A DNA stretch of 64,000 bases, from positions 106,814-170,813 of the forward strand of contig CAWGXL010000010.1 in assembly GCA_963826535.1 (NCBI GenBank), given 5' to 3'. The notes beneath the pieces were generated by a model. It made no database searches. It was not told the DNA's origin and worked only from the letters and a program-made list of their open reading frames with translations. The position numbers and the translations under genes are program-made. This document shows positions 14,322-31,128 of the stretch, in pieces; position 1 is the stretch's first letter, and each line of letters starts with the position of its first letter. The stretch is from an uncultured bacterium (GTDB lineage Bacteria; Patescibacteriota; Microgenomatia; Levybacterales; UBA12049).

Positions 14322-14519
14322 AGTTCGCTACATACTAGCAAATTAATATTGAGTTTGCAAGGAGTAGTCTCAACCGAAAAATACATAATTTATTTTTGAT
14401 ATACCAATATTGAATAATATTGTATAAGTGGTAAAAGCAGAAGAAATTGTTCGTTATACAGTTTGTTATATTCTGAATGATTGAACTTAGTTTCTACAAT
14501 TGCTATACTAATTTTCATT

Positions 14520-14840
14520 ATGCCAAGAAAACGTGACGAGGAATTTAAATCATTGATAAGAGAAATCGGAATACTCATTGATGCGAGAGCAAATACAACG
14601 GAGGTTATTTTAAGAGCAGAATTGGCGAGTAAAGAGGATATTAAAGATATGGTGAGAAAGAAAGATATTAAAGATATGGCGACCAAGGCTGATATTAAAG
14701 ATATGGTGAGGAAGGATGATATTAAGGATATGGCAACTAAACAAGACATTTTTCGATTAGAGAAAAAGATTGACGAAACAAAACTTTTGCAGAAGCAGGT
14801 AGATGAGATGAAAATAAGACTAGATCAGATAGAAGCTTAA
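14520..14840 (+). CDS. Small coiled-coil protein with 4.5 tandem 9-aa repeats (xxDIKDM[VA][RT]K)
   Basis: 27-bp DNA tandem repeat at ~14631-14745, in frame on the + strand. The antisense ORF 14390..14749 is a low-complexity shadow of the repeats. Start chosen at MPRKRDEE. Confidence 0.5.
   Translation: MPRKRDEEFKSLIREIGILIDARANTTEVILRAELASKEDIKDMVRKKDIKDMATKADIKDMVRKDDIKDMATKQDIFRLEKKIDETKLLQKQVDEMKIRLDQIEA
14631..14745. repeat. 27-bp tandem repeat (~4.3 copies) inside the coiled-coil protein gene
   Basis: aaagaggatattaaagatatggtgaga / aagaaagatattaaagatatggcgacc / aaggctgatattaaagatatggtgagg / aaggatgatattaaggatatggcaact. Confidence 0.8.
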
Positions 14841-21250: not shown

Positions 21251-21913
21251 ATGAAAGCAGCACAAATCAAAAATTATGGCGGCACAGATGCGATTGAGAT
21301 TAATTCAAATGCTCAAAAGCCACCATTGCAGCAAGGACAAATTTTAGTTGACGTTCATGCATCAAGCCTTAATCGAATGGATTCCGTAGTCCGTAACGGA
21401 TACTTACAAAAAATGATGCCATTCCCTTTCCCAATTACTCTAGGTGGAGATTTTTCAGGCGTTGTTACAGAAATTGGAAAAGGTGTAACTGATTTTAAAG
21501 TAGGTGATGAGGTATATGGAAATGCCGGAGTATATAAAGGTGGTTCAGGCTCACTTGCGGAATTTGTAGCATCAAAAAATGAAAATACTTATCTTAAACC
21601 AACATCTCTTGATTTTACTCAGTCAGCTGCACTTCCATTAGTTGGAGCAAGTGCATTACAAGGAATTGAAGAAGAATTGAAAGTTCAGCCGGGGCAAAAA
21701 ATTCTTATTCAAGGAGGCGCAGGTGGAATTGGATCCCTTGCAATCCAAATTGCAAAAATGCATGGTGCCTATGTCGCAACAACAGTTGGGACTGATGATG
21801 TTGAGTTTGTTAAAAATCTTGGAGCAAATGAAGCCATTGATTATAAAAAACAAAATGTAGCACAAGTTTTGGTAGTGGGTCAATTTGAAGGAGTGGAAAT
21901 TCACATGATATAA
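21251..21913 (+). pseudogene. Quinone oxidoreductase / zinc-type MDR dehydrogenase, N-terminal ~206 codons, interrupted at ~21870 by a mobile element. The ORF reads through into the element IR before stopping.
   Basis: GroES-like N-domain and Rossmann motif GGAGGIGS. The sequence ...IDYKKQNVAQVL is followed by element-derived VVGQFEGVEIHMI*. Confidence 0.75.
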
Positions 21914-21920
21914 TTAGTTT

Positions 21921-22650
21921 ATGTTGAGTAAGAGTGATATTTTGGAAGAAGTAATCCGAACCGCAAAGGAAAACGGAGGAATACCTCTTGGGAGAGGCAG
22001 GTTTGAGAAAGAAACAGGCATAAAACCGTATGATTGGGAAAAGTATTGGGTTCGACTTAGTGACGCACAAATAGAAGCGGGATTCACTCCTAATAAGCTC
22101 ACCACTGCATATACTGATGAATTTTTAATCAAAAAAATGATTGAACTTATTCGCAAACTCGGAAAATTTCCAGTTTACGGAGAATTAAAACTAGAAGCAC
22201 GCAGCAATCCAGAGTTTCCAGAAGCTAGGAGTTTTTTTCGAGACTAAGGAGCAAAAACGAAAACTAACAACAAAACTAATTGAATACTGTAAAGATAAGA
22301 GTAACTATTCAGATATTATAAATCTATGTCAGCTTGTTCTAGAAGATTTACCACAAAGAGAAATATCCGAATCTGATACATCTGTTCAATATGGAGAGGT
22401 TTATCTTTTTAAATCTGGTCGATATTATAAAATTGGGAGAACAAATGATTTGGTACGAAGAGGTACAGAAATTAAAATTCAATTACCAGAAAAAGTAGAT
22501 TTAATTCATTCAATTAAAACTGATGATCCGAGTGGGATAGAGTCTTATTGGCATAGACGGTTTCAATCGAAGTGCATGAATAATAGTGAGTGGTTTGATT
22601 TAAGCTCATCTGATGTAAAAGCATTTAAACGTTGGAGAAAAATTGTTTGA
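21921..22650 (+). pseudogene. GIY-YIG (T5orf172/MUG113-type) nuclease-domain protein, split by a +1 frameshift at a T7 homopolymer (~22231-22237)
   Basis: ORF 21921..22247 ends just after tttttttcga. The +1 frame then continues without a start as KLTTKLIEY...GEVYLFKSGRYYKIGRTNDLVRRG...ESYWHRRF...SEWFDL (the T5orf172 pattern) to the stop at 22650. The track lists only the TTG-start tail, 22450..22650. Confidence 0.6.
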
Positions 22651-22656
22651 ATTTTG

Positions 22657-23511
22657 TTAATAACCTGAATCAGTTAATTTTATAATATCCTCAATTTTCA
22701 ATGCTTTCGTTGCAACTCCAACGGCCATCGCAGGTGTGATGCCAAGATTTCTTATTTGATTTAATGTTTTATGTGGTCTGCAAAAGTTGTAATACATAAA
22801 ATGCAGCGCAACAGCAGCCTTTAGATTTTCAATCTTTTTTGAAAAAGCATTTGTCAATCTGGTAAATCTACGCATATTCATTCTCATTGTTAAGTTTTGC
22901 CTCTCAATATAGCTTGTCGAAATTTTCTTTGCATCCGGTTGTCCTTGCATTATCTCTATTTCAGTTCCAATACATTCAGCAGGGCTGTATCTTTTCTCAT
23001 CTTCTTTTTGTTGCTTGCCATATATTTTAATTAACATGGCGTAATCAACTTCAGAACCAATCGCGTCTTCTACCGCTTGTAAATAAACTTTATGCCCATC
23101 TGTTGTAAGTTGAACACGATTAGCTAATCTGCTTTTTAGGTCATTCATAAAAGCCATACCATACTCTGCATCTCTTAATCCAACAAGCCAAGATGGAACG
23201 AGTTTGGTGTCAGCGTCTAATGATGTCCACGTCCAAACATTGCCATAACCAAAATTACCTTTGTATTCTTCGGGTACGTTTTTCTCTTTCGCATAACAGA
23301 ACGACCATATTTCATCACATTGGATATTTTTACATGGAAGCTTACGAAGTGTAGTATCTTGATACTCAGCACATGCTCCACCAACGCTCAATAATAATCG
23401 TGTAACTGTACCCTTTGCAACTCCAGTCATCCGGCAAGTTGACCTAATTGAATTACCCTCCACTAATGCTGAAATTACTTGTGTTTTCTCCTCAAGATTT
23501 AATGCATTCAC
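22657..23511 (-). CDS. IS1 family transposase (fused InsA-like HTH + InsB-like DDE domain)
   Basis: 284 aa. N-terminal HTH (TCRMTGVAKGTVTRLL); CDEIWSFCYAK resembles IS1 InsB DEQWGYVG; lies inside the IS1-like IR-bounded element. Confidence 0.7.
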   Translation of the reverse strand: MNALNLEEKTQVISALVEGNSIRSTCRMTGVAKGTVTRLLLSVGGACAEYQDTTLRKLPCKNIQCDEIWSFCYAKEKNVPEEYKGNFGYGNVWTWTSLDADTKLVPSWLVGLRDAEYGMAFMNDLKSRLANRVQLTTDGHKVYLQAVEDAIGSEVDYAMLIKIYGKQQKEDEKRYSPAECIGTEIEIMQGQPDAKKISTSYIERQNLTMRMNMRRFTRLTNAFSKKIENLKAAVALHFMYYNFCRPHKTLNQIRNLGITPAMAVGVATKALKIEDIIKLTDSGY

Positions 23512-23524
23512 ACTGTTATTATAC

Positions 23525-23536
23525 TTGAGCGCTCAA
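23525..23536. promoter_or_regulatory. Perfect 12-bp palindrome ttgagcgctcaa ~14 nt upstream of the transposase start; candidate operator
   Basis: Read directly from the sequence. Confidence 0.35.
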
Positions 23537-23588
23537 GCATTGTCAAGATTAGATTTCCTCAAATTCAGTATCAACATAAGGTATTTTT

Positions 23589-23616
23589 TGTCCCATCTAT
23601 CTGGGACAGTTTTTGG
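23589..23616 (+). terminator. Hairpin tgtccca-tctatc-tgggaca flanked by T-runs (terminator-like) in the tnp / replication-relaxation intergenic region
   Basis: 7-bp perfect stem, 6-nt loop, followed by gttttt on the + strand. Confidence 0.35.
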
Positions 23617-23848
23617 CTTTACCTGATACTAAATTAATCCTCTTTTCAGGCTAATTTCGCCTTGATTCTTGATCCATAGGTGTGCTATTATCCTTTATAA
23701 ATATATGGGTGGGGACCCCGGCATATATTACTAATTAATTCCCACTGTCCACAACTGCTTCAAGAATAACAAATACCATTCTTAACTATACATATACAGT
23801 ATCTGTAATAATTCATAGATCAAAAAAAATAATAAACAATAAAATAAC

Positions 23849-24700
23849 ATGTCTAAAAAAATCATAACAAAAAAACAAGAAACGATACTCACATTAATCC
23901 TGATATTCAGATTTATCAATAGTAAACAGATACAACAATTCTTAGGACACAAGGATCATAGAAGAATAAATAGTTGGTTAAAAGATTTAGCGGAGAAACA
24001 ATATATCATCAGAGAATATAAACCAGTGTTTGGCACATTAACAAAACCTGCTGTCTGCTATTTATCATTGCTCGGCAGACAGTACATACGAGATACTCTG
24101 TATTTCATGAACAATACATACCTTGTAAGATTACGGGGCGATAAAGAAAGATCAAAGTCATTCAGAATACGATGTCAGTTGATTGCTGATTTTTACCTCA
24201 TTATCTTTGCAGGGAAAGAGAAAGAGTTAGTCACCTCCATAGAAGAATATTTAAAAGAGGGGGTAACAATAAAATCCAATATTCATCAGTTTTTTACTCC
24301 TGCATTTTACAGTGAACTTGAATTTGTACTCCTTTCTCACCTAAAGCCTGACGCGTATGTCTATAAACAGACAAAAACAGGAATCACTCATTCATGTATC
24401 TTTGTGCTTGATGCATATATTCCTCGTCTTATGTTGCAATATACCCTCAAACGTATTTTTCAGGCATTAGATGAAGAGAATTGGGAAGATGATGGGATTG
24501 CATCGCTCCACCTCTATTTTGTCTGTCCGAATAATATGGTGATTATATATTTAAGAAAGCTTCTCAAATCATTCATGGAACGCTATTATGGCAACATACC
24601 ACTCTTGTTTCATTTTGCGACAATAAATCAGTTGTATAAAAGGAAAACGGAAAAGTCTGTTAAAACCGATTGGATTACTGTTTCATCAAATGATGAATAG
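23849..24700 (+). CDS. Replication-relaxation family-like protein (plasmid-type HTH protein)
   Basis: 283 aa. N-terminal ILTLILIFRFINSKQIQQFL resembles the wHTH of replication-relaxation (PF13814-like) proteins. Weak call, by pattern only. Confidence 0.4.
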   Translation: MSKKIITKKQETILTLILIFRFINSKQIQQFLGHKDHRRINSWLKDLAEKQYIIREYKPVFGTLTKPAVCYLSLLGRQYIRDTLYFMNNTYLVRLRGDKERSKSFRIRCQLIADFYLIIFAGKEKELVTSIEEYLKEGVTIKSNIHQFFTPAFYSELEFVLLSHLKPDAYVYKQTKTGITHSCIFVLDAYIPRLMLQYTLKRIFQALDEENWEDDGIASLHLYFVCPNNMVIIYLRKLLKSFMERYYGNIPLLFHFATINQLYKRKTEKSVKTDWITVSSNDE

Positions 24701-24959
24701 CCCTCTTTGAGTTTTTGCCGATTTGCAAATTTTATTCAGAGCAATTGGATAGGTCATATGATGTTGAAGATATGGAGTTTCTTTTTACTGCATATGAGAA
24801 AGTAACTATTAATGGGATAATGGTTAATAAATGGAGGATAATTAAGGAAAAATAGAAATATGAAACAAGTAGAATCTAAATATTTACATTGTGCTAATAA
24901 CTTGAATTAAAGTTTGCTTTTTTAATACATATGTTTATAATATTATGTATTAAAAAGAC

Positions 24960-25373
24960 ATGAATAGAGCTGAATTTAAACGACTCTCGTTTTTAAGATT
25001 AAAGGAAGCAAAATTGTTGAATGATGAAAGATGCTATTCAGGAGCTTACTATTTGAGTGGATATGCAGTTGAATGTGCATTGAAAGCATGTATTGCCAAA
25101 AAAACTAAAAAAAGTGAATTTCCTGACTTAAAAGCTGTTCAAGCAAGTCACGTTCATGATTTAATATCATTAATAAGATCTGCTGGACTTGAACTTGATT
25201 TAAATAGTAAAATAAGCACAGATCGTACTTTTGGAAGTTATTGGACAACTGTTAAAGATTGGTCAGAAAAAGCAAGATACAGAACTTATAATCAGACTGA
25301 AGCTCAAGATTTACTTCAAGCAATTTCTGATCCAACGAGAGGAGTATTATTATGGATTCAACATTATTGGTAG
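24960..25373 (+). CDS. HEPN domain protein (PF05168-like, of the type that pairs with nucleotidyltransferases)
   Basis: YLSGYAVECALKACIAKK and SHVHDLISL helices typical of HEPN; 137 aa; overlaps the next gene by 22 nt. Confidence 0.6.
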   Translation: MNRAEFKRLSFLRLKEAKLLNDERCYSGAYYLSGYAVECALKACIAKKTKKSEFPDLKAVQASHVHDLISLIRSAGLELDLNSKISTDRTFGSYWTTVKDWSEKARYRTYNQTEAQDLLQAISDPTRGVLLWIQHYW

Positions 25374-25738
25374 AAAAATATATTAATCAAGGGAAAATTT
25401 TTATTCGTAATTTAGATGCGAATAATATTAAAGTGGATGCTGCACTATGGTTTTATGATTCCGATTCGAAAACATGGAAATTAATAATAGCAACGCCCAA
25501 GTATGACCAAGAAGGGGCTCTTAAAGTGTATCAACAAATCGAAAATTATCTACCACATGAAGGTGAAAATCATATTTCCCTACAAGATATTTCTGTAGTG
25601 AGCCCGCATGATTATTTAATATCTATATTAAGAAGTGCTATTAAAACACCAGTGGATGCAATTGCTGATATAAAATTTAATGACAATACAATTAATAACA
25701 AGTATATTGAAGGAGCCTATATTTACCGACTTACATAA
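25352..25738 (+). CDS. Unknown 128-aa partner protein co-transcribed with the HEPN gene; lacks the GSx(n)DxD motif of minimal nucleotidyltransferases
   Basis: ORF track; overlapping start, same strand. Confidence 0.5.
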   Translation: MDSTLLVEKYINQGKIFIRNLDANNIKVDAALWFYDSDSKTWKLIIATPKYDQEGALKVYQQIENYLPHEGENHISLQDISVVSPHDYLISILRSAIKTPVDAIADIKFNDNTINNKYIEGAYIYRLT

Positions 25739-25747
25739 ATGGTAAAA

Positions 25748-26524
25748 TTATATTAGCTTATTAGCATCCACAGAGTAACCACATGCTTTAAGCTCTTTTA
25801 TTAAATCAAATTTCCATCTTCCATTTAATTCATAAGGCACATATAGTACACCTGAGTAGTCAGTTGGCATTTCGAATTTTTCATCAGGCTTATACAGCGC
25901 CAAAACATTTTCTCTACCTAATTTTCCGATAAAATATCCAAGTTCAAACACGACATTTTGCCTAGCTCTTGATTTAGCATTTTCTATTTTATCTACACGT
26001 TCGTACCCAATATCATCTGGACTGAGTAACACAATGGCAAAGCCAACATCTGAATAGTCAGAGAATTTTTCTATTGTAGTCCGCCCCTTATTAGGTTGTT
26101 CATGTAAAATAATTGCTGTTAATTCTAGCTTCTCTAATGTTCTAGCAACAGATTGTTTCATTTCTTCATCATGTCCATGAACCACGAAAACATTCTTTTT
26201 AGATCTGCTTTCTACCAATTTCGGTTCTTTTTTAGTTTGAATCGGGCTAAAAATTTTTAATTCTTCAATCATTGTTTTAAAAAGATTTAACATTTGATTT
26301 TTTCCAGATATCCATTTTTCTTGATAGTATTCCTCAGTTGATGGATAAATTCTCGGGAAAAAATCTATATCTTTCAAATCTTTTAGATACTTACTGTCAT
26401 TACCAAATATTTTTCGTATTATCATTTCTGATCTACGAGTTAAAGCATCTAATTTATGTTCATCTCTATTTTGTAGTTCATCTAGATCTTTAAGCAGGCT
26501 TTGAATTAGTTCAATATTGTTCAT
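25748..26524 (-). CDS. TIR-like nucleotide-binding protein (COG4271-type): helical N-terminal region plus C-terminal TIR-like domain with a conserved glutamate
   Basis: Motifs KNVFVVHGHDEE, AIVLLSPDD and NVVFELGYFIGKLGRENV match the TIR-like family seen in Thoeris/CBASS-type effectors; 258 aa. Confidence 0.6.
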   Translation of the reverse strand: MNNIELIQSLLKDLDELQNRDEHKLDALTRRSEMIIRKIFGNDSKYLKDLKDIDFFPRIYPSTEEYYQEKWISGKNQMLNLFKTMIEELKIFSPIQTKKEPKLVESRSKKNVFVVHGHDEEMKQSVARTLEKLELTAIILHEQPNKGRTTIEKFSDYSDVGFAIVLLSPDDIGYERVDKIENAKSRARQNVVFELGYFIGKLGRENVLALYKPDEKFEMPTDYSGVLYVPYELNGRWKFDLIKELKACGYSVDANKLI

Positions 26525-26558
26525 ATTTTTATAGCATTTTCCTGAAACGAAATAAGGA

Positions 26559-26780
26559 TTATTTTTTCTTCCAACGTGCTTTTGCAGCTTTCCTTGCTAT
26601 TTTTTTCCTCTCGTCGGAAGTTAATTTTGCTTTACGGGCTGGTCCACCTTTTAGACCACCAAGTCTTCCTAGTGCTTGAGCATGAGGATTTTTCTCATGT
26701 GTAGCCTCTTTTGTTATCTTACTTGCGAGTTTATTTATATCCATGAGGAAATGGTAGCATAGATATTCATGAGCGGTCAA
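26559..26780 (-). CDS. Small basic protein with a KGG-type/lysine-rich tail (GGLKGGPARKAKLTSDERKKIARKAAKARWKKK), possible nucleic-acid-binding or stress protein
   Basis: ORF track; likely true start at MDINKLASK; located inside the mobile element. Confidence 0.4.
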   Translation of the reverse strand: MTAHEYLCYHFLMDINKLASKITKEATHEKNPHAQALGRLGGLKGGPARKAKLTSDERKKIARKAAKARWKKK

Positions 26781-26812
26781 GGAGTGCTAACTGAAATTGA
26801 CCCACTACCCAA

Positions 26813-27136
26813 GTTTTAAAAGATTATGATGCAGTTTTCGATACAGCAGGCGGAGAAGGAACAAATAAACTTTTCGCGGTCCTTAAAAAAGGCGGAAAAC
26901 TAGTCTCAATGGCCAGTCAACCGGATCAAGGACTCGCCAAAAAACATGAAGTAACAGCTTCTACTCAAGTCACTGCAGCAAGCGCTACTCAATTAAAGAG
27001 ATTAGCTGAATTAGTTGATAGAGGAAAAGTAAAAGTGCAAATTGAAAAAACTTTCCCCCTCACAGAGATAAAACAAGCATTTGAGTATTTCGAAACACAA
27101 CACCCGAGAGGAAAAATAGTCGTAAAAGTAAAATAA
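26813..27136 (+). pseudogene. C-terminal fragment of the interrupted quinone oxidoreductase
   Basis: In-frame translation from just after the element IR/TSD reads (P)TTQVLKDYDAVFDTAGGEGTNKLFAVLKKGGKLVSMASQ...HPRGKIVVKVK, a typical MDR/Qor C-terminus. An in-frame TGA lies immediately upstream inside the IR. Confidence 0.75.
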
Positions 27137-29154: not shown

Positions 29155-31128
29155 TTAGGGGGTTGGAGACAAAGAAATTGTCGTGGTCAAAGTTATAGTT
29201 GGTGTTAATGTCGAAGTCGGTGTATTCGTTAGTGTTGGCGAAAGAGGTGGGGCGAGAGTTATTATTGGGCTTGGTGTTGTTGAAGGAGTTGGAGTAATAG
29301 TTATAGTTGGTGAAATACCTGAACATCCGACCCCTGGCCGCTTCCAGCCGGCATACTCAATAAATCCGCGGCCCGGGGAATCAAAAACATCAAAGAGACG
29401 TGAAATGTTTGAGGGATATGGTTTATGATCCATTTCTTGTTGAGTTATGGGTCCCCAGTCATTTTCTGTGGCGTTTACATAATTAGGTGAGAGATTGCGA
29501 ATTTCAATGTCACCATTGCGATCTATAATATCCGTAAAGGCATCAACTTCACTATTGCCTTTGATATTTATACCGTCAAGCTTGTTGAAGCAGATTAAGC
29601 TGGTTATGATTAACGCATCGGATTTTTGTATCGCAATTCCGCTTTGGCCATTAGACACAATCCTACTGAGTTCAATCTCTACATCAGAATCCTTAAAAAC
29701 AAGCCCGCTTTTACCATTGACATCAATTGTGCTATTTTTGATAACTACATGGGAATCTAGGACTTCTATCCCCTCATTTTTGTTACTAATTATAGTAGTA
29801 TCATCAAGATGGATTGAGTCTTTGAAGCGTTTGAATTGCATCCCTCTTCCATTATTTTGAATCAGGTCGTGCTGATAGAAAAGATCAAAAGATACACCAC
29901 CGATAGCAAGCAGCCTGACCCCAATATCTATATTAGCTTCAAAGCGGGAATCCCTGTCTTTCCAAAAACCTGTAGCACCGGCACGGATAAATCCATCAAC
30001 TCCGGCGGTATTCTCAAGGACCTCAAACAACCGGGTACTCAATTCAACATTACCACGGACATCAAGTTGCCAGGCAGTACCATTTTGTTTCATAGATTCG
30101 CTGTCAAGGTTTATTTTCAATGCTACACCTTGAAGAGGCATTGTCTTAAGCGTAAATCCTGCTTTAGAATGAAGGTTATATTGGTTGTCAGAGAAATTTT
30201 TCTCACCTTCAAGCAGAAACCGGGTTTCAAGTCCTGTTTGTCCACCTAGCCATTGGTTGTTTAGAATCTCCCATTTGATCTTGCCGGTGTGCTGAATTTC
30301 TTCAAAAAAGCTGCCTCTGCCTCTTGTAGTTGCATGGACGTTTCCGCTGTAAGTTACAGAAATATCTCCGGCTCCCTGACCAAAGCTCAACTTCGCAGCG
30401 GTTTCAACACCTAGTTTCTTGAGTGGATTACCAAATTTATTACCCCTAAACTCGTAATCTCCTCCGACAGAAGCATTCAGTTCCAATCCATAAACATTTA
30501 GATTTTCAAACTCACTATCACTCAATGTAAAGTCCATCTTTCCTTTATTACTTGCATTTAAGACCAATCCTTTCCTCGCATTAAGAAATTTAAGATCTGT
30601 AAGGTGAAAGTTTGGATCATCCCCTTTCTGTGCAACGATGTGTAGTCCTTCGCGCAGAAAATTACGGAATTCAATACTGCCTATATCAAATTTTTTAGCT
30701 GTAACAAAAATCGCCCTGACAACATTACCACGCCCGTCAATTACTTTGCGGCTACGTGTGGCACTCGAAATAATAGTGCCGTCGTGCTTGATCTCAGGAA
30801 GAATTCCATCCAACTGTACATCAACCTCTAGAAAAATAAAATGAAGCTTTCCTTCCCCGGGTGTTCCTAGAACTTGTACCTGCTCAGCAGTAGTTAACAA
30901 TCTACCAAGATTACCTTCGCTAAGTAATATTGCCTCGCGCAGCGTTAGCTTGTTATCAGCTATGTTGTTATCTTGGTTCCCATTAACCCGTGCAGTGAAA
31001 TTATTCGTTTGTGCAAATGCGGTAAAAACACGAGGATTCAGGTTGAAGATGCTATACAATATTAATACTACTAATATTGTAACGCTAAGTGAAAGCCAAA
31101 TTTTGCTCTTACTCTTCATACTTTCCAA
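29155..31128 (-). CDS. Secreted/cell-surface protein: N-terminal TM/signal, right-handed parallel beta-helix repeats, and a C-terminal Thr/Pro-rich tail
   Basis: N-terminal MESMKSKSKIWLSLSVTILVVLILY. Repeated NxxGxxxGIxI-type PbH1-like segments (IEVLDSHVVIKNSTIDVNGKSGLVFKDSDVEI...). C-terminal ITITPTPSTTPSPIITLAPPLSPTLTNTPTSTLTPTITLTTTISLSPTP. The antisense ORF 29183..29428 was rejected. Confidence 0.6.
   Translation of the reverse strand: MESMKSKSKIWLSLSVTILVVLILYSIFNLNPRVFTAFAQTNNFTARVNGNQDNNIADNKLTLREAILLSEGNLGRLLTTAEQVQVLGTPGEGKLHFIFLEVDVQLDGILPEIKHDGTIISSATRSRKVIDGRGNVVRAIFVTAKKFDIGSIEFRNFLREGLHIVAQKGDDPNFHLTDLKFLNARKGLVLNASNKGKMDFTLSDSEFENLNVYGLELNASVGGDYEFRGNKFGNPLKKLGVETAAKLSFGQGAGDISVTYSGNVHATTRGRGSFFEEIQHTGKIKWEILNNQWLGGQTGLETRFLLEGEKNFSDNQYNLHSKAGFTLKTMPLQGVALKINLDSESMKQNGTAWQLDVRGNVELSTRLFEVLENTAGVDGFIRAGATGFWKDRDSRFEANIDIGVRLLAIGGVSFDLFYQHDLIQNNGRGMQFKRFKDSIHLDDTTIISNKNEGIEVLDSHVVIKNSTIDVNGKSGLVFKDSDVEIELSRIVSNGQSGIAIQKSDALIITSLICFNKLDGINIKGNSEVDAFTDIIDRNGDIEIRNLSPNYVNATENDWGPITQQEMDHKPYPSNISRLFDVFDSPGRGFIEYAGWKRPGVGCSGISPTITITPTPSTTPSPIITLAPPLSPTLTNTPTSTLTPTITLTTTISLSPTP

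Follow-up and report, generated by a model that had tools for sequence, protein, structure and literature searches.

The type VII system HepT/MntA, which is the closest described relative of the arrangement reported here, consists of a small HEPN protein and a small alpha/beta partner encoded in a tight two-gene operon, occurs also in fused forms, and has a wide and patchy distribution that includes mobile elements; all of these features are shared by the gene pair analyzed below. Other HEPN proteins act without a partner. AbiV is a lactococcal abortive-infection protein encoded by a single gene, and HepS of Gifsy-1, which together with Tha represents the prophage HEPN abortive-infection RNases, works solo, has the canonical R100-H105 motif, and is held inactive by its own tetramer. 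Here, we describe a locus within a 64,000-nucleotide stretch of DNA from an uncultured patescibacterium (the window), in which a HEPN gene, an overlapping gene encoding a 128-aa partner, and a convergent gene encoding a TIR-domain protein are carried by a single transposon (Table 1). A first-pass annotation had proposed that the three genes form one mobile defense module. We present evidence that the HEPN and partner genes are an autonomous pair and that the TIR gene is unrelated to them. The account that we consider probable is one in which two independent modules are passengers of an IS1-family transposon, one a cassette of a HEPN RNase toxin and its partner inhibitor, the other a stand-alone TIR gene.

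Table 1. Features of the transposon and its insertion site, in window coordinates.
Feature	Coordinates	Strand	Description or evidence
Zinc-type alcohol dehydrogenase/quinone oxidoreductase gene, 5' part	21251..21870	+	ADH_N and start of ADH_zinc_N
Target-site duplication, left copy	21863..21870	.	8 bp, CAAGTTTT
IS1-family transposon with passenger genes	21871..26809	.	4,939 bp; bears all three genes; repeats and duplication
Left terminal inverted repeat	21871..21886	+	16 bp, GGTAGTGGGTCAATTT
T5orf172/MUG113 (GIY-YIG-like) passenger gene	21921..22650	+	MUG113 1.6e-11; +1 frameshift at ~22247
IS1-family DDE transposase	22657..23511	-	284 aa
Replic_Relax-like protein	23849..24700	+	283 aa; divergent from transposase gene; passenger or accessory
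HEPN-domain protein	24960..25373	+	137 aa; predicted RNase toxin; ORF list and PF05168
HEPN/partner overlap	25352..25373	+	22 nt; HEPN stop region with partner start
Partner protein	25352..25738	+	128 aa; family without annotation; predicted to be a protein that inhibits HEPN, as antitoxin or sensor
TIR-domain protein	25748..26524	-	258 aa; ~105-aa N-terminal region and CAP12/PycTIR-type TIR domain
Lysine-rich protein	26559..26780	-	73 aa; adjoins right repeat
Right terminal inverted repeat	26794..26809	-	perfect reverse complement of left repeat
Target-site duplication, right copy	26810..26817	.	8 bp, CAAGTTTT
Same zinc-type dehydrogenase gene, 3' part	26810..27136	+	ADH_zinc_N_2 positions 76-134

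The overlap of the HEPN and partner genes, which the first-pass annotation had put at about 22 nt, is exactly 22 nt and likely couples the translation of the two proteins. An identical overlap is present in 68 of 79 scored pairs, the remainder being largely attributable to the choice of start in the longest open reading frame, and it recurs in copies residing on Acinetobacter and Deinococcus plasmids, in a Klebsiella phage, and in E. coli prophages. Eighty HEPN loci were checked for a partner; four of these end at contig ends, and in every one of the 76 assessable loci, bacterial and archaeal, the partner gene lies directly 3' of the HEPN gene. Pairwise protein distances in the two families are correlated (r=0.84; Mantel 0/999), with the partner diverging faster than HEPN (0.64 vs 0.48), and in one protein (P0074) HEPN and partner are fused in a single chain. 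No third gene is conserved near the pair: the largest cluster of neighbors covers 9 of 83 loci, all from related cyanobacteria, and the 169 Pfam families matched by 124 immediate neighbors are each found in three loci or fewer. The HEPN and partner genes are, then, a self-contained, strictly conserved, autonomous two-gene module, and one that does not correspond to a named system. Its layout is the generic one of type II-like toxin-antitoxin loci, a compact, co-inherited operon found in varied contexts and on mobile elements. The pair is situated mostly among housekeeping genes and seldom in defense islands, a setting more in keeping with a selfish toxin-antitoxin cassette than with a dedicated defense system. 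Our literature searches returned no reports of toxicity, RNase activity, binding or phage resistance for any family member, and no papers on the E. coli protein accessions of the pair.

The HEPN assignment, made earlier from the sequence by eye, is borne out by profile search. The window protein scores 24.5 bits with PF05168 (HEPN-T), for which the gathering score is 22, and a match to this model is common to 63 of its 64 relatives (top E-value 1.1e-9); a profile search of the PDB for relatives of solved structure gave nothing meaningful. In the family alignment the invariant polar residues are R13, E38, K42, H66, R106 and Y107, with R106 conserved at 99%. The canonical Rx4-6H RNase motif is absent from the family, there being no conserved histidine 4 to 6 residues past R106; an invariant histidine, H66, is located instead on the N-terminal side of this arginine. 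This pattern fits what has been described as an alternative active site in HEPN-T domains of the AF0298/AbiV type (PMC3710099): the motif retains its basic residue (R106 in the window protein) and lacks its histidine, a second, strongly conserved histidine lies N-terminal to it (H66), and an acidic residue is found in helix 2 (E38). The same work describes a Cpin_6617 HEPN-T family in which the domain is joined to a "dyad of ferredoxin domains"; this might be the family studied here. The active site would have R106 at the canonical arginine position, H66 supplied by the preceding insert, and E38 from helix 2. The resemblance to AbiV itself is limited: weak matches to PF18728 (HEPN_AbiV) were obtained for 4 of 64 family members, sequence similarity to AbiV is marginal, and the HEPN gene here, unlike abiV, has an obligatory overlapping partner.

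The absence of Rx4-6H means that the HEPN protein could be non-catalytic. It has to be considered, then, that HEPN is catalytically dead, and that the pair is a complex without toxicity that binds RNA or nucleotides, or that the partner is the toxin; there are HEPN-T members, the sacsin HEPN among them, that bind nucleotides instead of cleaving RNA. We regard this as improbable. The six polar HEPN residues are invariant across phyla, which suggests catalysis, whereas the partner has no conserved polar residues, a distribution that we count in favor of HEPN as the toxin. Additionally, the only disrupted copy that was seen, a single case among 190 near-identical E. coli copies, had lost HEPN by a frameshift and retained an intact partner, and the patchy, mobile distribution of the pair speaks against a housekeeping role. 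On its residue pattern, the HEPN protein is predicted to be an RNase toxin that employs an alternative active site of the AF0298/AbiV type.

The partner belongs to a family that a word-indexed homolog search, with two relatives recovered, barely reveals; an exhaustive profile search showed it to be large, with no fewer than 3,125 clusters when grouped at 50% identity. The first-pass annotation had remarked that the partner lacks the nucleotidyltransferase motif expected of HEPN/MNT pairs, and this holds for the window protein, for which neither Pfam nor NCBIfam nor PADLOC gives a nucleotidyltransferase match, as well as for its relatives, 0 of 88 of which match a nucleotidyltransferase family in Pfam or any PADLOC model. 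Of the catalytic motifs of minimal nucleotidyltransferases (PF01909 or PF18765), G[SG] is missing from the family and neither DxD nor the third carboxylate is conserved; D36-S-D38 of the window protein is not kept among its members, and the residues that are conserved (L, G, A, W and Y) are hydrophobic or glycine rather than polar. The structure of the partner was modeled by AF2 with a pLDDT of 91, and the predicted fold is closest to that of the minimal nucleotidyltransferases, a further likeness to HepT/MntA. Foldseek comparison of the model with the PDB gave nothing significant (top E-value 0.19), nor did a PDB profile search with the family give anything meaningful. Alignment of the family with an MNT alignment by hhalign yielded a probability of 0.8%, although the latter, built from the MNT encoded at one of the loci, is narrow (65-78% identity) and makes for a weak test. 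The fold of the partner may go back to a minimal nucleotidyltransferase whose catalytic residues have been lost.

These observations bear on a reading in which the partner, though highly diverged, is still active as a nucleotidyltransferase and neutralizes HEPN by covalent modification, as in type VII HepT/MntA with the gene order reversed. Y107 of HEPN is invariant; the partner, for its part, lacks catalytic residues. The missing motifs, the lack of Pfam matches and the negligible profile similarity to MNT make neutralization by AMPylation unlikely, and we judge an active enzyme to be distinctly improbable. We infer rather that the partner silences HEPN by binding to it, with no enzymatic activity of its own.

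The HEPN/partner pair is present in at least 578 species genomes, and is repeatedly found on mobile elements. On Acinetobacter plasmid pAJ4131 it lies near a BrnT/BrnA module, with one gene in between, and a Deinococcus plasmid and Klebsiella phage Kp4864-1 also bear it. In E. coli, lambdoid prophages of 190 of 5,426 complete genomes (3.5%), many of them O157:H7 prophages, carry the pair between the replication and nin genes, with WP_001038620.1 as the HEPN allele and WP_000520499.1 as the partner allele.

The most likely function of the pair is that of an RNase toxin and its protein inhibitor, operating in a toxin-antitoxin or abortive-infection capacity. In this mechanism, the partner would bind and silence the HEPN protein without enzymatic activity; its loss, degradation, or displacement by a phage product would in turn release the HEPN RNase, and the cassette would serve either as a toxin-antitoxin unit resembling type II or in abortive infection. 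A related proposal holds that the partner is mainly a phage sensor, restraining the HEPN RNase until a phage protein binds, in the manner of sensor-effector abortive-infection systems such as the fused CapRel or HepS/Tha rather than of labile-antitoxin addiction. The single-chain fusions, the extra C-terminal domains of some partners (e.g. DUF3800), and the faster evolution of the partner all favor it, as does the accessory-gene site occupied by the pair in E. coli prophages, since a similar site, between replication and antirepressor, has been described for the solo HEPN defense gene hepS (PMC13043305). Most chromosomal copies, however, lie outside defense islands, and the proposal overlaps the toxin-inhibitor account, from which it differs only in the mode of toxin release; we hold it to be a minority possibility and rather doubtful. 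A broader and somewhat less doubtful conjecture, still tentative, is that the pair is an unrecognized and widespread two-component abortive-infection system, in which an MNT-derived pseudo-enzyme has become the phage-sensing gatekeeper of an RNase with an AbiV-like alternative site, and which extends from Patescibacteria and archaea to the prophages of Shiga-toxin E. coli. With an allele present in E. coli prophages, the question can be put to a direct test in a standard host.

The TIR gene is convergent to the partner gene and, as had been observed in the first-pass annotation, immediately downstream of it, with 9 nt between the stop codons. Its product matches the CAP12/Pycsar TIR family PF10137 at 129.6 bits (cut-off 24.7; E-value 7.9e-38), in agreement with the earlier TIR-like assignment, and contains the motifs cited in its support, FVVHGHDEE from residue 113 and VVFELGYF from residue 191. 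The protein aligns to the Cap12 structures 9lmq and 7un8 through NVVFE(L/F)G, in which E194 corresponds to a Cap12 glutamate. We take the equivalent glutamate of Cap12 and TIR-STING to be catalytic, and E194 is hence the putative catalytic residue. With the NCBIfam Cap12 models the score is 33 bits, well below the cut-off of 450. The PADLOC model PDC-S35 covers residues 1-257 of 258 with an E-value of 2.3e-84. PDC-S35 comes from a set of 145 candidates that were predicted by "guilt-by-embedding" (10.1101/2024.01.29.577857); a literature search for PDC-S35 returned no papers. The combination of genes had been thought to be unnamed, which holds for the HEPN/partner pair but not for the TIR gene, already catalogued singly under this label. 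No CD-NTase, pyrimidine cyclase, SAVED, STING or ThsA gene was found among the open reading frames of the element or its flanks, which argues that the TIR gene is not part of a CBASS, Pycsar or Thoeris system. Nor is any gene conserved beside TIR relatives in most of 81 loci, a DNA-methylase-like gene lying upstream in 9. Judged from its full-length model match, the TIR gene is a stand-alone, single-gene defense candidate and a PDC-S35 member, and its product is presumably an NAD+-consuming effector controlled by its own N-terminal region.

The proposal that the three genes form one integrated system, in which for example the TIR protein makes or consumes a nucleotide signal that controls HEPN and its partner, draws on their tight packing on one mobile element and the short gap between the convergent stop codons. 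A neighborhood survey runs counter to it. The three genes were never co-localized elsewhere: a TIR gene was found within ~6 kb of none of 82 other HEPN-pair loci, and neither HEPN nor partner was found at any of 81 loci of TIR relatives (~350 kb in total). A candidate made up of one gene accounts for the whole length of the TIR protein, the pair is found by itself in prophages, on plasmids and among housekeeping genes, and related transposons bear other cargo. The TIR gene is therefore unrelated to the HEPN pair and stands beside it as cargo. We regard a single three-gene system as extremely improbable and not worth further pursuit.

The element that carries both modules has precise boundaries, defined by its terminal inverted repeats and the duplicated target site. 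Excision of the element together with one copy of the duplication restores the reading frame of the interrupted dehydrogenase gene (...VAQVLKDYDAVFDTAGGE...), the 3' frame of which is open from 26801; the site of insertion was a zinc-dehydrogenase gene, and the recipient genome one of low GC, probably of Patescibacteria. The transposase scores 24.9 bits with Pfam DDE_Tnp_IS1 (cut-off 24.1) and 58.6 with NCBIfam transpos_IS1 (7.7e-16), the latter under the cut-off of 100, and relatives at 70-83% identity bear the source name IS1 family, among them transposases in Patescibacteria at 81-83%. The genes had been described as riding on an "IS1-bounded element". They do ride on a mobile element; this is, however, a single transposon with cargo and one transposase, not a segment flanked by IS copies, for no second IS copy was found and direct or inverted repeats of 40 nt or more are absent across the window. 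A scan for promoters and terminators gave no excess over shuffled sequence.

Three related elements (L169, L170 and L171) end in the same repeats, are each flanked by an 8-bp duplication of their own and carry different cargo, so that four independent insertions of this transposon family have been seen. The 73-aa protein is 60-77% identical to the repeat-adjoining open reading frame of all three, and on this similarity its gene is a conserved backbone gene of the family. A homolog of the Replic_Relax-like protein (32% identity) occupies the same position in L171; the window protein scores 23.5 bits with PF13814, just under the 25.3 cut-off. The T5orf172/MUG113 gene, whose open frame resumes from 22249 after the frameshift, is probably a pseudogene. 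The family appears, from the relatives found, to be specific to Patescibacteria, in which an IS1-type transposon would move toxin-antitoxin and defense genes as interchangeable cargo.

Comparison with known systems places each part of the locus. The transposon shares with IS1-family insertion sequences a DDE_Tnp_IS1 transposase, inverted repeats starting with GGT and 8-bp duplications; it differs in its size of 4.9 kb, its five passenger genes, and a transposase encoded by a single open reading frame. The TIR protein resembles Cap12 and PycTIR effectors in its PF10137 domain and NVVFE(L/F)G glutamate motif, and PDC-S35 in being a single gene with an end-to-end model match. For the HEPN pair, the multi-gene PADLOC candidate PDC-M28 was considered and rejected: all 64 HEPN relatives match PDC-M28A (top 1.7e-11), but the matches are weak, at 31 bits for the window protein, and the lack of PADLOC matches among partner relatives likewise indicates that the pair is not PDC-M28, on which a literature search returned no papers. 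The pair shares with HepS a lambdoid prophage accessory slot downstream of the replication genes, and with HepS and Tha the expected cleavage of RNA upon phage attack; it differs from HepS in having a separate partner and a non-canonical site. Finally, the pair differs from HepT/MntA in its reversed gene order, HEPN being the first gene both in the window and at each of the 76 loci, in a HEPN protein that belongs to PF05168 rather than DUF86 and lacks Rx4-6H, and in a partner devoid of the GSx(n)DxD motif, of a Pfam nucleotidyltransferase match and of similarity to the MNT profile. The HEPN/partner pair thus represents a sister arrangement whose partner family was never annotated, and if the partner descends from a nucleotidyltransferase and is catalytically dead, an enzymatic antitoxin would here have been turned into a binding or sensing one.

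Three adjacent ORFs had been proposed in a first-pass annotation to form one mobile defense module: a HEPN gene, an overlapping partner gene and a TIR gene convergent with the partner. The ORF positions and the estimated overlap of ~22 nt were borne out, as the HEPN and partner ORFs share exactly 22 nt; the stop codons of the partner and TIR ORFs lie 9 nt apart. Profile searches also upheld the domain assignments. The HEPN ORF exceeds its Pfam threshold (24.5 bits versus 22), and the TIR ORF matches the CAP12/Pycsar TIR domain strongly (129.6 bits), with FVVHGHDEE and VVFELGYF starting at residues 113 and 191. The partner, described as lacking the expected nucleotidyltransferase motif, indeed matches no profile in Pfam, NCBIfam or PADLOC and belongs to a family without catalytic motifs.

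Coordinates of features in the window and in comparison loci
Feature	Location	Coordinates	Strand	Details
HEPN ORF	window	24960-25373	+	137 aa; Pfam PF05168
Partner ORF	window	25352-25738	+	128 aa; no match in Pfam, NCBIfam or PADLOC
TIR ORF	window	25748-26524	-	258 aa; Pfam PF10137
IS1-family transposon	window	21871-26809		4,939 bp
Dehydrogenase, N-terminal part	window	21251-21913 (ORF)		gene portion 21251-21870
Dehydrogenase, C-terminal part	window	26801-27136 (open frame)		gene portion 26810-27136
T5orf172/MUG113 gene	window	21921-22650		+1 frameshift near 22247
27-nt tandem repeats	window	14618-14752		within overlapping ORFs at 14390-14840
657-aa protein	window	29155-31128	-	Thr/Pro-rich tail
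Related element	L169	4786-6861		2,076 bp; no cargo
Related element	L170	5284-7908		2,625 bp; Panacea-domain pair
Overlapping gene pair	L170	7023-7863		SocA_Panacea-domain gene and 102-aa gene
Related element	L171	3696-6859		3,164 bp; Replic_Relax-like gene and one more gene
Partner-DUF3800 fusion	L084	4001-5383		460 aa
Methylase-like and TIR genes	L099	2898-4928		example locus

The three genes are carried by a transposon with perfect 16-bp inverted terminal repeats (GGTAGTGGGTCAATTT) and an 8-bp target duplication (CAAGTTTT). It cleanly splits a gene for a zinc-type alcohol dehydrogenase/quinone oxidoreductase, and its excision in silico restores ...VAQVLKDYDAVFD... at the junction. That the repeats are perfect and the duplication is intact suggests that the element inserted recently. 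Besides the HEPN pair and the TIR gene, the element encodes a Replic_Relax-like protein, a 73-aa basic protein, and one IS1-family transposase; it also holds a GIY-YIG-like T5orf172/MUG113 gene that includes a homing-endonuclease-associated repeat and is frameshifted, so that it may be a pseudogene or reflect a sequencing error. The earlier description of an IS1-bounded element was right in placing the genes on a mobile element and wrong in implying two flanking IS copies. Transposases at 81-83% identity are common in Patescibacteria, and three related elements (L169, L170 and L171) have identical repeats, each with its own 8-bp duplication. Together with the window element they represent four independent insertions of this IS1-type family in Patescibacteria metagenomes, sharing a backbone of transposase and small basic protein. 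The L170 cargo is probably a Panacea-type toxin-antitoxin pair, and the family is one in which toxin-antitoxin or defense cargo is exchangeable. Elsewhere in the window, a 27-nt unit occurs in four to five tandem copies (a 9-aa repeat, roughly KDIKDMxxK), and a 657-aa protein with a low-complexity tail (…TPTPSTTPSPIITLAPPLSPT…) has the look, from its sequence, of a secreted or surface protein.

The proposal of a single three-gene system was refuted by gene neighborhoods. This TIR gene is present at none of 82 other HEPN-pair loci, and neither HEPN nor partner occurs at any of 81 loci encoding TIR relatives (L085-L165). Since there is no co-occurrence in either direction, the genes are neighbors in the window by coincidence, as cargo of one element. 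The TIR gene corresponds to a candidate that is already in a catalogue, with an end-to-end match to the PADLOC PDC-S35 models (E 2.3e-84); PDC comprises 145 candidates predicted from genes that lie within BREX, DISARM and type I restriction-modification systems (10.1101/2024.01.29.577857). At 9 of the 81 TIR loci the gene immediately upstream, in the same orientation, is DNA-methylase-like (DPPF motif), which fits this origin; no other conserved neighbor was found there. The TIR domain aligns with solved Cap12 proteins through NVVFE(L/F)G, placing E194 at the glutamate position, and no cyclase, CD-NTase or ThsA gene lies near it.

The HEPN and partner genes form a single conserved unit. A word-indexed search recovered only two partner relatives; in both cases a 137-aa HEPN gene comes first, with the identical 22-nt overlap, and one of the two has no TIR gene downstream. 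Scanning one genome per species placed HEPN relatives at at least 578 loci, and an exhaustive profile search (E<=1e-3) yielded a partner family of 3,125 representatives at 50% identity. Among the best 80 HEPN loci, 4 end at a contig edge; in all 76 others a partner homolog begins within the HEPN 3' end, and 68 pairs have the exact 22-nt overlap. The HEPN and partner distance matrices are correlated (r=0.84; 0/999 permutations as high), with faster divergence in the partner. The two are fused in a single chain in one protein (P0074), and some partners, among them P0124 and P0035, bear C-terminal extensions. On Deinococcus plasmid NZ_CP140099.1 (L084), a partner domain with C-terminal DUF3800 retains the 22-nt overlap with the upstream HEPN gene.

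Hosts of HEPN relatives include cyanobacteria, Planctomycetota, Acidobacteriota, Bacteroidota, Chloroflexota, Nitrospirota, a Bacillus, a Gottesmanbacteria genome and three archaeal lineages. The pair is also found on a 13.9-kb Acinetobacter plasmid near a BrnT/BrnA module, and in Klebsiella phage Kp4864-1. Of 5,426 complete E. coli genomes, 190 carry it in lambdoid prophages, as one allele (>=99% identity throughout) between replication genes and ybcN/ninE/rusA. RefSeq labels the partner 'hypothetical protein'. No conserved third gene was found around HEPN-pair loci. The 124 immediate neighbors, for the most part housekeeping genes, matched 169 Pfam families, each in at most three loci.

Invariant or near-invariant residues of the HEPN family are R13, E38, K42, H66, R106, Y107 and two cysteines. 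With no conserved histidine after R106, the canonical Rx4-6H motif is absent. The same variant, in which the basic residue is retained, the motif histidine is gone and a second conserved histidine lies in the helix 2-3 insert, was described in AF0298-type HEPN-T proteins and AbiV and suggested to be an alternative RNase site (Anantharaman et al., PMC3710099); a few family members match AbiV weakly. Conserved partner residues are hydrophobic, aromatic or glycine, a pattern more in keeping with a binding protein than with an enzyme. The partner's AlphaFold model is confident (pLDDT 91.2, pTM 0.84; 88 sequences), and its next-ranked fold matches include 1ylq and many Pol-beta-type nucleotidyltransferases, with BolA, KH and ferredoxin-like folds scoring just below. 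Foldseek gave no significant match to the model, and hhalign detected no similarity between the partner family and an MNT alignment. We therefore label the predicted fold MNT-like, with homology unproven and catalytic motifs absent.

Most likely, the HEPN protein would be an RNase toxin, and the partner, produced from the same mRNA by coupled translation, would bind and silence it. The toxic role is placed on HEPN because the invariant polar residues lie there rather than in the partner, and because of the module's mobility and patchy distribution. Release could follow loss of a labile antitoxin; the housekeeping surroundings in most genomes favor a selfish toxin-antitoxin cassette. Alternatively, a phage product could act on the partner, a trigger favored by the HEPN-partner fusions, the partner's fast evolution and the prophage location.

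Literature searches brought up no account of the partner family or the pair, although the type given in a single line of PMC3710099 as 'HEPN-T (Cpin_6617), fused to a dyad of ferredoxin domains' may be this one. Identity with PADLOC PDC-M28 was rejected, as no PADLOC model matches the partner. HepT/MntA was likewise rejected: its partner is a nucleotidyltransferase, whereas ours is not recognizable as one, the gene order here is reversed, and the Rx4-6H motif is missing. The active-site pattern resembles that of AbiV/AF0298, and the prophage location that of HepS. The pair would work most like a HEPN toxin-antitoxin module.
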